A DNA stretch of 40,000 nt from an uncultured Bacteroidales bacterium (GTDB lineage Bacteria; Bacteroidota; Bacteroidia; Bacteroidales; VadinHA17). Position 1 is the stretch's first letter; the number at the start of each line of letters is the position of its first letter. The stretch is from the NCBI GenBank assembly GCA_963809855.1, contig CAWELF010000001.1, forward strand, positions 1,573,446 to 1,613,445. Reading direction: 5' to 3'. Below, one piece after another: positions 12,166 to 21,538 of the stretch. The position numbers and the translations under genes are program-made. The notes below the pieces were generated by a model, which searched no databases, was not told the origin of the DNA, and worked only from the letters and a program-made list of their open reading frames with translations.

Positions 12166-12357
12166 TTATATAAACGGAGAGCAAAAAACGCTGCCAACAG
12201 CGCGTCGGCCTGCAGCCCTACTGACTTTGTCTCGGCAGCAGGATGAGTCAGGGTACACCAAATTTAATAAGTGAAATGAAGTTACGAGCATAGACTTATA
12301 TAGCTGATTACGAATGTGTCCGGGCTGCAGAAGGCACTTAACTATACCATCCGTGTT
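12166..12357 (+). repeat. Structured repeat copy B, 3' part
   Basis: Resumes with TTATATAAACGGAGAGC and ends CTATACCATCCGTGTT. Confidence 0.9.
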
Positions 12358-12499
12358 AGCATTTCGGGCCAATTTTAAAACTGTCACTGGTAACCAAATT
12401 TTATGTTGATCGCATGATATCTTGGTCATGTATATTTTAATCGAAATTTAGCCTTGTCTTGCATTGTTAATTCGCATGAAGAATTGGATCTGTCCAGTT

Positions 12500-13474
12500 T
12501 TATCCTACGTAGCTTATTTCATATTTATTTGCACTTATTGATCTTATTTTTATTGGTTTAGAGCCAAGAGTCGAACTTGATTCTCTATTTAAGTTAACCA
12601 TAGACGTCTGGATGTTATTAGTCAAAATATATTTGAGAATTTCCCTTTTTTCTTTTCTTTTTTTTCTCAATTTCACGACCTGTCTTTCATGCGTACTTTG
12701 ATCGTTTAAATACTCATTGATCTCGAAAAAACTGTACCCTAAGATGATTTCTTTTATTGCCTTTGGATTAAAATAGAATTTTCGATTATGTGCTTTAGGC
12801 AAATCTCTATTGGGCACCTTCATAACATTTGGCCCATAAAATATTAAACGCCATTCATTTTCATGATCCCAACACTGAGCCTTTATATTTGATTGATAAA
12901 TGAAGCTAGCCCTATTAAATTTATTATATTCAATCTTTTCAAAATTGTCTGTATAATTGATTGGAAAAGGTCCCCAGTAATTTTTAGGAAAGTAGCTTAA
13001 ATCAAATTTTACAGCATAACCTTGATGCTTTGAATAATATGACCACATTTCCATGCTTTCACAATTTGTTGTGGCACAGAAAATTCCAACTTTCATGTAA
13101 ATAACATTATACAAAAGCCAATTTAATTGTTTAGATAGATTCAACTTATCCTCTAATTTTGTAGAATTGAACAATTCTGTCAATTTGGTTGGCTCGAAAA
13201 TCCCATCATTTAATTCCAAGATATCCTTGATACTTGTATTGTCAAATGTGATCAGTTCTTTATTACAATCAAAAGGATCGTTGAAATTATAAGGGTGCCC
13301 GGCAAACACATAATGATCGAGAATAGAATTTATATGTTCTGTATTTAGCTCATAGAAATGATATAATTCAATTGGAATTTCTTTGAATTTATCAGATTTG
13401 ATCTGAAATATATCACTCTCTGAATCGATATTTAAGTCAACGAAATAACTGAACCGATTGAAGGTATGTTTCAT
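12500..13474 (-). CDS. DUF2971-like protein
   Basis: 324-aa ORF. Motifs PYNFNDPFDCNKE, GIFCAT, EMWSYYSKHQGYAVKF and ENEWRLIF. Paralog of 8160-8927. Confidence 0.7.
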   Translation of the reverse strand: MKHTFNRFSYFVDLNIDSESDIFQIKSDKFKEIPIELYHFYELNTEHINSILDHYVFAGHPYNFNDPFDCNKELITFDNTSIKDILELNDGIFEPTKLTELFNSTKLEDKLNLSKQLNWLLYNVIYMKVGIFCATTNCESMEMWSYYSKHQGYAVKFDLSYFPKNYWGPFPINYTDNFEKIEYNKFNRASFIYQSNIKAQCWDHENEWRLIFYGPNVMKVPNRDLPKAHNRKFYFNPKAIKEIILGYSFFEINEYLNDQSTHERQVVKLRKKRKEKREILKYILTNNIQTSMVNLNRESSSTLGSKPIKIRSISANKYEISYVG

Positions 13475-13525
13475 TGTGCGTAAATTATGTTAATTATGTT
13501 GTTGAACTTGTTTAGAACAACTTTC

Positions 13526-13918
13526 TCAGTAGTAAATGACGCCTTTCTCATCTGGTACGGTTTTTAATTTTAATGAACCGGTAGAATAATCATGGTATTG
13601 CCAAGAATATTCTTTGTATTCCATTACATAACTTTTCTCTTTCACTCCCCAATAATCTTTGATTACCAACTGGATCTGGTTATTATCGATCTCAGGAAGC
13701 AAAATATCATAGGTCTTTTTGTGAAAAACAAAGGAAACGAACCATATAAAACCTATAATAGAAAAAAGGTATTGAAGATTTTTTATAACTACATCGAGAT
13801 TGATCCTTTTCAATACTAACTCCAATAATTTGTTTCCAATAATAAGGATGATTGTCATTCCTGCTATAGCAGCAAGAAATATTAATAGATATGTGAAATG
13901 GAAAACAGTGAGTACCAT
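13526..13918 (-). CDS. Small membrane protein (2 predicted TM helices)
   Basis: 130-aa ORF with hydrophobic segments FHFTYLLIFLAAIAGMTIILII and LFSIIGFIWFVSFVF. Confidence 0.55.
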   Translation of the reverse strand: MVLTVFHFTYLLIFLAAIAGMTIILIIGNKLLELVLKRINLDVVIKNLQYLFSIIGFIWFVSFVFHKKTYDILLPEIDNNQIQLVIKDYWGVKEKSYVMEYKEYSWQYHDYSTGSLKLKTVPDEKGVIYY

Positions 13919-13964
13919 GATCGATATTATTTAAAAGTTAATATTTATAAATCTTTTATTCCCT

Positions 13965-14570
13965 TTACTTATTATAATCTTGAATAAATTTATGTAATTC
14001 TTCAAATCCAATATAAGAATCATTTTCTCCTAAGTCAGCTTTTAACCAATTTAAGAGTTTTTGAATCTGAGCATTTTTATAAATTGATTCTATATATGCA
14101 AAGAATCCATTCTCCAAATAATCTATTCCAATTAAATTATTAATCCGATACATGTTTAGATCTTCAAAATGATTAAGAAGAACATCTTCAATTTCTAAAG
14201 TTGAATAGGAGTCCTTGACATTCACAAGAAGCTTTATTGAGTCGTTTTGAAAATATTTAGCTCTTGCTTTATTTAGGGCAAAATAAGCATAATCAACTTT
14301 TGAGCTTGAATCTTTTAAAATCTTAAATTCCAGCAAGTTATTATTAAATAGAAACATTAATGTTCTCTCTTCTTCATTGAAAAAGTCAATTTTAATCTTA
14401 TGTGCAAAATCGGCCTTTAAAGAATCAGTATAGCGATGAAGTTGAAAAACTGTACAAAACATCAAAATCAATGTGGCGGCCGTGGTTATCAATGTGACTT
14501 TTTCAATTGGCTTGGCTTTTCCTTTTTTTTGGAATTTTTCTTGTTCCTGTTCTTGATCATTATTTTCCAT
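13965..14570 (-). CDS. Membrane-anchored hypothetical protein
   Basis: 201-aa ORF. Charged N-terminus followed by the TM segment VTLITTAATLILMFCTVF. Confidence 0.55.
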   Translation of the reverse strand: MENNDQEQEQEKFQKKGKAKPIEKVTLITTAATLILMFCTVFQLHRYTDSLKADFAHKIKIDFFNEEERTLMFLFNNNLLEFKILKDSSSKVDYAYFALNKARAKYFQNDSIKLLVNVKDSYSTLEIEDVLLNHFEDLNMYRINNLIGIDYLENGFFAYIESIYKNAQIQKLLNWLKADLGENDSYIGFEELHKFIQDYNK

Positions 14571-14606
14571 AGTCGTATTCTTTTTTGTAATGTGCTTAAG
14601 TCTGAA

Positions 14607-19498: not shown

Positions 19499-19842
19499 AA
19501 CGGCTCGGTGGTATAGTTAGGTGCCGTCTGTGTCAGGGTTGGCGAGTTTTTTGCCAGTCCCGGTAGATGGACGCAAGGTATCTGGTCACGGTAAAAGCCG
19601 ATTACGTAGGAGTCCCGGTAATGAAAACGCCATTTACTTGTCACGGTGCATTATATAAACGCAGAGCAAAAAACGCTGCCAACTGCGCGTCGGCCTGCAG
19701 CCCCATTGATTTTGTCTCGGGTGCAGGATGAGTCAGGGTACACAAAGTTTAATAAGTGATTTGAAGTTTCGAGCATAGACTTATGTAGCTGATTACGAAT
19801 GTGTCCGGGCTGCAGAAGGCACTTAACTATACCATCCGTGTT
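19499..19842 (+). repeat. Structured repeat copy E
   Basis: Full-length alignment with the other copies. Confidence 0.9.
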
Positions 19843-19889
19843 ATGTTTAGACGAGGGTTAAAAGTCTCTCGTCAAGACGAACTGAGTCA

Positions 19890-20213
19890 CTATGCAATGA
19901 CGAAACTATTACCCTCAAGCTCAACCTGCATTTTAATCTTTGCCTTAAGAGCTGTAAACACTTTTAGTATTGTAGATAGTGTCACATTACCAGTATGATT
20001 TTCAAGTCTAGATATTTGAGCTTTCTGAACACCAATGAGGTCTCCTAATTGCTCCTGTGTTAATTTTCTCTCGATTCTGGTCTGCTTTATTAGCTCGCCA
20101 AGAACGTCCATTTGCAAATCATATTCGTATTGTTCTCTCTCGGTGGTACCCTTTTTACCAATGAACTCATCTTTGATCTCGTCTAGGGAATATTTTTTAA
20201 GTTTCTTTTCCAT
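19890..20213 (-). CDS. XRE-family HTH antitoxin (HigA-like)
   Basis: 107-aa ORF with the HTH LTQEQLGDLIGVQKAQISRLEN. It lies 11 nt downstream of the toxin gene. Confidence 0.75.
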   Translation of the reverse strand: MEKKLKKYSLDEIKDEFIGKKGTTEREQYEYDLQMDVLGELIKQTRIERKLTQEQLGDLIGVQKAQISRLENHTGNVTLSTILKVFTALKAKIKMQVELEGNSFVIA

Positions 20214-20224
20214 AATCTTCGTTT

Positions 20225-20578
20225 TTAATAAGCTTCAAAATACTGTCTCATTAACCGTCTCGCTTTCTCAATCTCCTGTTTTGGAACCTTACCTGTTTTT
20301 TTAATAAATCCGTGAGTACAAATTACAAGAATGTTTTTATTATCTCTTTTATCCCAAAAGGCTAAAAGTCTATGATTTAAGTTTTTGAATTTAGTCCTAA
20401 ATTCCCAAATCTCCTTGTCTAGTTTTTTAAAAGCTTTTGGATCATTGTATATTTTAGATTTGTCAATATTGAAAATGAGCTTGTAACGAGCTTTTTCATC
20501 AATAGTCCTGAGAAATTCTCGAGCTTCGTCTAATAACTCAATTTTAAATTTGTCCTTAATCATGGTGCAAATATACAA
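20225..20578 (-). CDS. RelE/HigB-superfamily toxin (Gp49-like)
   Basis: 117-aa ORF, likely starting at the internal MIKDKF. Motifs IWEFRTKF, HRLLAFWDK and VICTHGFIKKTGKVPKQEIEKA fit this family. The toxin-first gene order matches HigBA. Confidence 0.7.
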   Translation of the reverse strand: MYICTMIKDKFKIELLDEAREFLRTIDEKARYKLIFNIDKSKIYNDPKAFKKLDKEIWEFRTKFKNLNHRLLAFWDKRDNKNILVICTHGFIKKTGKVPKQEIEKARRLMRQYFEAY

Positions 20579-20712
20579 AATGTTTCTTTACAACGAAACT
20601 TAATATTGATTTTTTATTCTTGAATCGTTATGTTTAGACGATATTTGTCTAGATGGAACTAACTGGTTGTCAAGACGAAACTGTCAAGAAATATTTTTAA
20701 TCGTTTAAACAT

Positions 20713-21055
20713 AACGGCTCGGTGGTATAGTTAGGTGCCGTCTGTGTCGGGGTTGGCGAGTTTTTTGCCAGTCCCGGCAGGTGGCGCGAAGTTGTCTGAT
20801 CACGGTAAAAGCCGATTACGTATGAGTCCCGGTAATGAAAGCGCCATTTACTTGTCACGGTACATTTTATAGACGGATAGCAAAAAACGCTGCCAACTGC
20901 GCGTCGGCCTGCAGCCCTATTGAGTTTGTCTCGGCAGCAGGATAAGTCAGGGTACACCAATTTAATAAGTGAAATGAAGTTTGGAGCATAGATGTAAATA
21001 GCTGATTACGAATGTGTCCGGGCTGCAGAAGGCACTTAACTATACCATCCGTGTT
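20713..21055 (+). repeat. Structured repeat copy F
   Basis: Full-length alignment with the other copies. Confidence 0.9.
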
Positions 21056-21538
21056 AACAATAGTACTATATTAAAATCCCTACCGATCTAAAGTCCCGGT
21101 AAACGGACGGATGATTCTTGTCAAGGTAAAATTGTCTTACGTAATAGTCCCGGTAAACGGCCGAAAACCCAAACGTCAAAAAGAGATTTTCTAGGTTGCC
21201 GTTAACAATAGTGCGCCCTTGCAAATGACTGGTTGTCAAGAAGTAATTTACTAACCAAGGATCATTTGCAAGGCCCCAGCGTCGGCATAAAAAATTGGCC
21301 AGGTTGTGTTTCGCGGTACAAGATTTATAGGAATGGTAAATTGTCTCGGTAGTGTTAATTTGTTAACAGGACGTGGCGCGAGAGCCAATTTTTTATACGT
21401 GCGCAGGCAGGAGGATTCGGCTGGCATTTTGTGTGTCGCGGTATAATTAATAAACGGACGATAATTGTCTTGTCACGGTAAACTATATTACTTGTAGTGC
21501 GGGTAGCCGAATGGTCTGAGTTTCTGCGTATTATTGTT

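Follow-up and report, generated by a model that had tools for sequence, protein, structure and literature searches.

What kind of genetic element is assembled from a long structured repeat that alternates with short gene-bearing segments, each flanked by words that return at the next repeat? The question is raised by a 40-kb stretch of a Bacteroidales chromosome (contig CAWELF010000001.1; the whole stretch is called the window below), in which seven copies of a 339-nt structured repeat, here named SR, are separated by cassettes (Table 1). Three short segments of a cassette are distinguished throughout: its start, R (GTT plus about 10–13 nt); its end, L (...TAAC); and a distal copy of R, named Rd. 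Read from comparative sequence, and with a probability that we place a little above even, the region is an integron-like array of mobile gene cassettes whose sites are 339-nt folded DNA elements.

Complementary cassette ends and the distal repeat

Related loci were retrieved from Bacteroidales metagenome-assembled genomes (MAGs) by a conserved 22-mer of SR, and the flanks of all SRs in these loci and in the window were tabulated; individual loci are cited by number (L005 and so on). A scan of metagenomes for SR yielded at least 120 contigs among the matches listed. The window, the related MAGs and the metagenome contigs among the matches listed together provided a set of 117 distinct cassettes. 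In the window and the related MAG loci, R and L are reverse complements of each other in 28 of 30 cassettes, and position 11 is always G in R versus T in L. Under a strict criterion of at least 11 paired bases, 92/117 cassettes show this complementarity, while random R/L combinations, which served as the chance level, reach it in ~1% of trials. All 92 carry a G.T at position 11 (G in R, A in the reverse complement of L), and 26 of them have one additional bulged T in R. The pairing words themselves are highly diverse: 94 different R words were found among 246 sites, and across these 94 words R, Rd and L change in concert. Each cassette thus carries its own inverted R/L pair, like an integron cassette that has its own R' bases at its start.

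An earlier note on this DNA had reported that the sequence following a repeat reappears in direct orientation before the next repeat. All five pairs listed there are exact: 12355-12374 equals 15384-15403 (20/20), 17694-17708 equals 18551-18565 (15/15), 19840-19854 equals 20627-20641 (15/15), 21053-21064 equals 21201-21212 (12/12), and 18949-18961 equals 19444-19456 (13/13), the last with a third copy, TTATGGTTAGTG, at 19282-19293. A search of both strands showed each repeat word to be unique in the 40 kb, and a sixth pair, absent from that list, was identified (GTTAGCTGCTGGGC at 21880-21893 and 24541-24554). The local hairpins proposed at 18551-18611, 19444-19501 and 20627-20715 also fold as claimed, with energies of -7.6, -11.8 and -12.9 kcal/mol and z-scores of -2.8, -5.4 and -3.1, respectively; for each, the + strand is favoured over the - strand by 1.2–3.6 kcal/mol. 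The G.T that they were said to share at position 8 is real, the 8th base after GTT being position 11 when counted from the G of GTT.

Several other claims required narrowing. The looser similarity said to extend 20–40 nt beyond the repeats is found only for 18950/19282 (65 nt, 74%) and 21880/24541 (~34 nt), and for the remaining pairs it ends directly after the repeat. The box TTAAAA..TGTCTCGG, described as following every repeat, does occur in more or less degenerate form after all seven window SRs, but it is not universal in related loci, where it follows 38% of 235 repeat ends versus 8% of control windows. The proposal that a flank can alternatively pair across the adjacent 343-nt repeat would hold only for a circularised cassette. 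In the linear array the partner of L is the R that opens the same cassette, one SR upstream, and SR copy 1 is the only one in the window with complementary flanks on both sides. Nor do the direct repeats bracket gene-bearing segments only, as 21053-21212 brackets 148 nt without a gene.

We then scored Rd across the cassette set as a GTT-initial distal arm with at least 12/13 positions pairing with the cassette end. It is present in 57/117 cassettes (49%) and in 1.7% of composition-shuffled cassettes, which provided the chance level. The distance from Rd to the cassette end falls into preferred classes of 58-66, 87-92, 106-133, 164-167, 213-224 and 341-351 nt, and the shortest cassettes measure 132-133 nt. 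Identity between R and Rd averages 11.7 nt and pairing with L extends over a matching 11.8-12.6 nt, the identity being confined to the stretch that pairs with L. R and Rd are perfect copies while the adjoining sequence has diverged (similarity nil or ~70%), and the wobbling G is kept in both. Such a pattern would be expected if both pairings with L were maintained, and is unlike that of neutral scars. Rd is therefore best described, from these comparisons, as a second 5' arm for L that appears interchangeable with R. Of the two readings offered in the earlier note, the first, which makes the direct repeats a component of an attC-like structure, gains support from the co-variation of R, Rd and L, from their matching lengths and from the kept wobble. 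The hairpin module of cassette 4 illustrates the behaviour of such an end: it is conserved at 73-87% across eight cassettes of its R family, seven of them with a recognisable Rd, while the cassettes vary in length and share little else.

The folded repeat, its crossover point and the elements that invade it

Alignment of 30 SR copies from six genomes resolved two main subtypes with ~70% identity and a common fold, a three-way junction composed of a closing stem and two arms. In this fold 98.4% of SR cells are paired, compared with 32-48% (about 40%) when the partner columns are slid. Compensatory changes are present at 12 pairs, seven of which lie in the closing stem that joins the SR ends, and the closing stems of the two subtypes differ from each other by compensatory changes. 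Read on the + strand, the non-Watson-Crick cells comprise 181 G.T and 1 A.C, and because of this asymmetry the fold is assigned to the + strand alone; several of the wobbles are invariant in 30/30 copies. Folding is thus predicted to favour the + strand, to which the cassette genes, all encoded on the - strand, are antisense. By analogy with integrons and IS91, the + strand would fold as single-stranded DNA. GC skew, computed to assign the folding strand to the leading- or lagging-strand template, is dominated in this region by coding-strand effects.

SR further contains four GTCNCGGT boxes at ~27.5-nt spacing, and the same box recurs after R and in hairpin loops. The window holds 38 such boxes where 1.08 are expected; 37 are on the + strand and all lie within the array. 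The boxes probably bind an accessory protein or a recombinase. A search of Rfam 15 left SR unmatched both at the gathering threshold and under relaxed settings up to E = 10, the group II intron being the sole match in the window, and SR had no DNA match in a plasmid collection.

Reduced forms of SR were also seen. L060 (reverse strand, oriented ~6585-6664) carries a ~75-nt miniature SR in which only the two closing-stem ends are kept, adjoining a cassette that bears full SRs in L049, and shortened variants are present in L005 (6604-6885) and L010 (6293-6504).

Natural variants locate the crossover. R family and SR subtype show no linkage on either side at the family level, and only near-identical cassette pairs were informative. 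L029 and L057 share 1960 nt at 100% identity; the shared stretch opens precisely at TAAC|GGC, the left edge of SR, and upstream of it the two are unrelated. Cassette 6 of the window recurs in L010 with 99.8% identity; the SR upstream of it is 96.2% identical and the SR downstream, of the other subtype, 70.8%. The L030/L104 pair repeats this pattern. A relaxed BLAST search for further natural breakpoints gave one clean case, the rest being deletion variants. Since the variants break at TAAC|GGC, the mobile unit would be SR plus R...L, as in an integron cassette. The breakpoints confine the crossover to the 4 nt of the conserved TAAC where L meets SR, and the gene strand there reads ...SR|GTTA. 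With the crossover inside TAAC, cassettes read in the gene direction would begin with (G)TTA... and end with the giant site, which is the layout of an integron cassette. On the + strand the unit deduced from these junctions consists, in order, of SR, R, cargo on the - strand, an optional Rd-loop and L ending in TAAC.

Integron attC sites are attacked by group IIC-attC introns and IS1111-attC elements, and the sites of this array have comparable invaders. The L beside the group II intron, CATAGCAGCTAAC, is non-cognate to its own R, GTTAGCATTTCGGGCC, and matches the R7 family, GTTAGCTGCTGGG; flank exchange tied to group II intron mobility is possible. In L013 and L007, elements of the IS110 family interrupt the closing stems of SRs of two subtypes at the same point, CTTAAYTAWA|GCACATATG (L013:2901-3233 on the + strand; L007 on the reverse strand, oriented 7340-7670). 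This suggests that an IS110-family insertion sequence (IS) targets SR specifically, as IS1111-attC elements target attC. An IS110-family transposase gene is also located at 24975-25973, just past the array end, and has a 90%-identical copy near an SR in L033.

Candidate enzymes, a proposed mechanism and the rival explanations

An IS of the IS91 family lies at the array end. Its Y2 HUH transposase matches NF033538 with 442 bits (cut-off 125), and the element has the other marks of the family, namely no target duplication, a subterminal hairpin and a GTTC/CTTG-like neighbour word. In this family, oriIS lies next to a GTTC/CTTG-type tetranucleotide and single-stranded circles insert without target duplication (10.1101/2025.01.24.634351), and the recombinases of IS91 elements have been reported as the closest relatives of IntI (10.1101/542381). 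The tyrosine recombinase encoded in the window IS belongs to the Xer/IntI clade and is without the IntI-specific insertion: it scores 164.6 bits against TIGR02249, below the cut-off of 265, in two stretches that skip ~55 residues of the IntI model; it matches VchIntIA (2a3v) likewise in two stretches; and its best solved relative is XerA. The additional domain (I2 helix) by which an integron's IntI integrase is recognised is therefore absent from it. An exact-sequence look-up of this recombinase returned no record, and the plasmid collection contained only distant relatives of it (<60%).

The recombinase and transposase together constitute a widespread multi-copy IS, with 7906 homologues, many of them on contigs of ~2.5-3 kb. 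The right end of the window copy, a hairpin followed by TTAACT, abuts GTTA, and in every unambiguous copy (10 distinct flank sequences) the right-end hairpin plus TTAnnT abuts GTTA or ATTA. In L099 the array end is present without the IS, at 85.6% identity; comparison with this allele shows no target duplication and identifies the window IS as a secondary insertion. The idea that the IS supplies a dedicated integrase of the array is weakened by this allele and by the absence of tyrosine recombinase and Y2 genes from thirteen 8-kb array loci. Miniature derivatives of the IS are present in L065 and L037. SR itself was considered as a miniature of the neighbouring IS and rejected, as blastn shows no similarity of SR to the IS ends and the true miniature derivatives look different; the two share only a 12-nt motif, GAAGGCAMTTAAYT versus GAAGCCTTAAYT. 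By blastn, SR and the cassette units also lack IS91-type ends homologous to the terIS or oriIS of an autonomous partner.

These features can be arranged into a working mechanism. The substrate would be the folded + strand, on which a helix 5' of TAAC|, ending in GTT/AAC, would be needed for recognition of the crossover site. In a circular or looped-out cassette, L would pair with R, and in the circle the L:R helix would stack on the SR closing stem to form one long stem; the G.T wobble would then lie a single helical turn away from the crossover and do what extrahelical bases do in attC. In the array, Rd would serve as the nearby partner of L, the foot of the hairpin lying exactly at the crossover beside the folded SR, and would provide the L helix without folding of the whole cassette. 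R, Rd and L would be kept identical or complementary because either Rd or R must supply the recognition helix. The boxes would bind the recombinase or an accessory protein. Acting in trans, Y2 HUH transposases of the IS91 family and the IntI-like tyrosine recombinases that accompany them are the candidate enzymes; they are plausible drivers of the cassettes because the boundary word TAAC is the complement of the IS target word GTTA.

Three other explanations were weighed against the integron-like array. The earlier note's second reading takes R and Rd for duplicated cores of the attL/attR type, which module circles left behind when conservative site-specific recombination brought them into an SR-R-loop-L-SR scaffold. 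A variant of it would have the modules enter through insertion of the IS91 type, 5' of GTTA. We regard this explanation as improbable, though it retains some weight. The same R-plus-box and Rd-loop-L scaffold holds unrelated genes, of 190 aa in the window and 279 aa in L007; the GTTATGGTTAGT family includes cassettes of eight different lengths; and cassette 4 contains three successive R copies. In addition, both the window IS and the miniature derivative in L065 end exactly at the 5' edge of Rd, directly before its GTTA, and IS91-family insertion beside a GTTC/CTTG-type tetranucleotide is known (10.1101/2025.01.24.634351). The natural breakpoints, however, map to TAAC|GGC and to neither R nor Rd, and empty repeat-hairpin-repeat scaffolds, sought in the metagenome scan, had 0 matches although that scan found its 120 or more SR-bearing contigs. 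Half of the gene-bearing cassettes are without Rd, and conversely the DNA between R and Rd is geneless at 21053-21212 and in the terminal segment. The terminal repeat is retained in the IS-free allele L099, and the repeat length of 12-20 nt follows the length of pairing with L and not a fixed core or duplication length.

Alternatively, SR could encode a structured non-coding RNA on the + strand, with R, Rd and L acting in the RNA (guide-like, bridge-like or as a processing signal) and the G.T being a conserved G.U. The 339-nt three-way junction with covariation, its many invariant G.U-type pairs on one strand only and the nearby IS110-family (bridge-RNA-type) transposase would agree with an RNA. 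We nevertheless think it quite unlikely, given that no Rfam family matches even at E = 10, that DNA recombination breakpoints fall on the SR edge and that the IS110 copies insert into SR and are not its partners; reading SR by eye showed no promoter-like sequence on the + strand, though no promoter scan was made. Finally, SR could be a miniature transposable element with terminal inverted repeats that inserted into TAAC^GTTA palindromes such as terminator hairpins, the "cassettes" being intervening DNA. The SR ends are indeed inverted (closing stem), with TAAC on the left and GTTA on the right; full IS91-family copies elsewhere have GTTA or ATTA directly after their right end, and four of these also have TAAC ~100-130 nt upstream of the conserved left-end sequence. 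Such an origin, which predicts complementary L and R around one SR, is very unlikely, since that arrangement is seen at 1/7 window SRs and L pairs instead with the R one cassette upstream. Whole SR-plus-cassette units are moreover common to genomes in different contexts, and no similarity of SR to IS ends was found by blastn.

Some observations weigh against an integron-like array as well. The entire case is built on comparative sequence, and no recombinase is linked to the arrays: the sole nearby one belongs to a secondary IS insertion, and none is found in thirteen 8-kb genome loci. The G.T excess could partly reflect strand-biased cytosine deamination and not selection, an account against which the invariant wobbles argue. 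Rd is missing from 51% of cassettes, some of them 3 kb long, and is therefore not required; its presence has no clear relation to cassette length. The mechanism also leaves unaccounted for both the exact position of R at the SR 3' edge and the unrelated genes inside identical R / Rd-loop-L scaffolds.

With these points in the balance, we retain the integron-like cassette array as our reading. We offer a bolder version of it only tentatively: that it is a second, independently built cassette capture platform, widespread in environmental Bacteroidales and operating without an integron integrase. In such a platform single-stranded circles would be cut at TAAC| beside a 339-nt folded, origin-like element by an IS91-type Y2 HUH transposase or its I2-less IntI-like tyrosine recombinase; the choice of site would depend on a cassette-specific stem of 13-17 nt in which the G.T is obligatory, and branch migration would let R and Rd replace one another on L.

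Array contents, meaning and comparison with known systems

Besides the toxin-antitoxin pair of cassette 5 (Table 1), the cargo includes two DUF2971 proteins with matches to the candidate defence family PDC-S31 and, in L065, a HepT/MNT-like pair assigned by reading translations of open reading frames (ORFs). The remaining cargo genes encode small proteins that lack known domains.

Table 1. Features of the cassette array in the window (positions are those of the 40-kb stretch).
Feature	Position	Strand	Details
Cassette 0, end	5435-5789	+	Element B 5435-5734; L 5777-5789
SR copy 1	5790-6126	+	Flanks 5777-5789 (L) and 6127-6139 (R) mutually complementary
Cassette 1	6127-9467	+	R 6127-6139; element B 9113-9412; L 9455-9467; without Rd
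Cassette 1 cargo, three genes		-	One gene, 8160-8927, DUF2971 / PADLOC PDC-S31
SR copy 2	9468-12354	+	Halves 9468-9622 and 12164-12354, IS21-family insertion between them
IS21-family element in SR copy 2	9623-12163		istA 9822-10997; istB 11317-12045; 8-bp duplication CATTATAT
Cassette 2 R	12355-12374	+	GTTAGCATTTCGGGCCAATT, bulged-T class; cognate L in metagenome cassettes, ...GGGCCTGAATGCTAAC
Cassette 2 Rd	15384-15403	+	Loop after Rd homologous to Rd-loop of L008
Group II intron	15460-17342	-	Reverse transcriptase/maturase 15554-16999; abuts inner edge of L arm 17343-17355
SR copy 3	17356-17693	+	
Cassette 3 R	17694-17708	+	GTTATATTTAGGCAA, then box TTAAAATTGTCTCGG
Cassette 3 Rd-loop-L hairpin	18551-18611	+	Rd 18551-18565; L 18597-18611; G.T at position 11
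SR copy 4	18612-18948	+	
Cassette 4 R	18949-18963	+	GTTATGGTTAGTGAT
Cassette 4 extra R-plus-box copy	19281-19346		
Cassette 4 Rd-loop-L hairpin	19444-19501	+	
SR copy 5	19502-19839	+	Closing stem and two arms; four GTCNCGGT boxes in arm 1
Cassette 5 R	19840-19854	+	GTTATGTTTAGACGA
Cassette 5 toxin-antitoxin cargo	19890-20578	-	Gp49/HigB-like 20225-20578; HTH antitoxin 19890-20213
Cassette 5 Rd-loop-L hairpin	20627-20715	+	
SR copy 6	20716-21052	+	
Cassette 6, geneless	21053-21541	+	R 21053-21066; Rd 21201-21212; element B 21213-21525; L 21528-21541
SR copy 7, last full copy	21542-21879	+	
Terminal segment	21880-22121	+	R7 21880-21893 and boxes, then short degenerate SR-like stem-loop (about 21995-22121)
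IS91-family IS	22122-24540	+	IntI/Xer-like tyrosine recombinase 22206-23120; Y2 HUH transposase 23117-24280
Second R7 copy, box and structured terminal element "T"	24541-24705	+	R7 24541-24554

Element B, a second structured element of ~310 nt, is present three times in the window and also in L005, L010, L012, L030 and L104. The copies at 5435-5734 and 9113-9412 are 89% identical. It carries GTCGCGGT boxes of its own and an A/T-run stem reminiscent of SR arm 1, and in the 341-351-nt hairpin class it lies between Rd and L. A word (AA)AGTTAC(A/G)GAATCAT, which is GTTA-like but without the position-11 G, was noted at ~4476, 5427 and 9120, in each case opening a structured segment (GCAAAAAAGCAT...TGCCAAACTC). 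Element "T", which follows the last GTTAGCTGCTGGGC and contains ...CTGCTTTAGCC..GTCTCGTCGAGTGGCAGGGACGGGCTGGAAGGC...GCCTGACAGC, is shared with L099, L059, L037 and L007, and a diverged copy is found at ~6270-6340; element "T" may represent an array boundary or an attI-like site. Outside the array, ORF 30121-30627 contains ~18 tandem copies of a 21-nt unit (30235-30612), and a defence-type neighbourhood occupies 31950-39967 on the - strand, with an AbiL/OLD/Gabija-like ATPase (32402-33388), a type I restriction R subunit (33462-36674) and a GmrSD pair (36682-39967).

Apart from integrons, no system for stockpiling and shuffling single-gene cassettes is, to our knowledge, well understood so far, and the origin of integrons and of attC sites is an open question. 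Full-text literature searches found no description of arrays such as the present one, and this type of integron-like cassette array is apparently undescribed so far. It combines integron cassette logic with an entirely different site and no IntI nearby. That IS91-type enzymes drive it as a distinct platform is a real possibility. The array contains an IS91 element whose target word GTTA is the cassette boundary word, and a link between IS91 and integron-like capture becomes directly testable here because the recombinase clade nearest to IntI is IS91-borne (10.1101/542381) and one of its members sits in the array. The invariant G.T and the two alternative arms provide precise positions for mutation. 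Occurring in many environmental metagenomes with toxin-antitoxin and candidate defence genes, the arrays form an unexplored mobile-gene reservoir of Bacteroidales.

Among known systems, the array most invites comparison with integrons, especially sedentary chromosomal ones with similar attC sites such as the Vibrio VCRs. Both consist of same-orientation cassettes, mostly of one to few genes, separated by a repeated folded site with boundaries AAC...GTT; in both, the first bases of a cassette partner the far arm of its site, and in the present set the cassette start is complementary to the cassette end in those 92 of 117 cassettes, with breakpoints in TAAC. The crossover lies within or next to GTT (G|TT in integrons; here within TAAC, GTTA on the gene strand), the folding strand is antisense to the cassette genes (the "bottom strand" of attC), and the cargo is rich in toxin-antitoxin and defence genes. 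Group II introns and IS110-family elements hit the sites here, as group IIC-attC introns and IS1111-attC elements do in integrons. The site itself is different. An attC is an imperfect palindrome of 57-141 nt (R''-L''...L'-R', AAC...GTT), whereas the site here is about 370-430 nt long with a conserved 339-nt three-way junction and iterated GTCNCGGT boxes at its core; it has the boundaries and a strand-specific fold in common with attC but is not an attC. A cassette-specific 13-17 bp stem with an invariant G.T stands where attC has extrahelical bases, and in half of the cassettes the 5' arm is duplicated. IntI is absent; the tyrosine recombinase close by lacks the IntI-specific insertion and is part of an IS. 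No attI or Pc was identified.

The IS91 family (IS91, IS801, IS1294 and ISCR; one-ended transposition) is represented in the window by its Y2 HUH transposase. Its members form single-stranded circles of one strand, make no target duplication, need a GTTC/CTTG-type word next to oriIS, have subterminal palindromes at both ends and can mobilise neighbouring genes (10.1101/2025.01.24.634351). Here IS and SR both abut GTTA, and the unit boundary TAAC| is its complement. In contrast to IS91, SR bears no detectable sequence resemblance to the ends of the IS, the cassettes carry a cassette-specific 13-17-nt inverted pair that is not known for IS91, and the arrays are regular and head-to-tail, the window IS being a later insertion and no fixed part of them. 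The attP(+) site of the CTX phage, recombined by XerCD, likewise involves a tyrosine recombinase of the Xer/IntI clade and is formed only when a single strand folds, with imperfect pairing; it differs as a single phage at dif, without a cassette array, a 339-nt element or cassette-specific arms. IS200/IS605 elements use Y1 and not Y2 transposases, have guides of 4-5 nt and not 13-17 nt and form no cassette arrays. With the present array they share strand-specific hairpins of single-stranded DNA and cleavage directly 3' of a short word at the hairpin end (TTAC in IS608; TAAC here). In IS200/IS605 the flank equals the target since both pair with one internal sequence, and this offers a possible logic for the identity of R and Rd.

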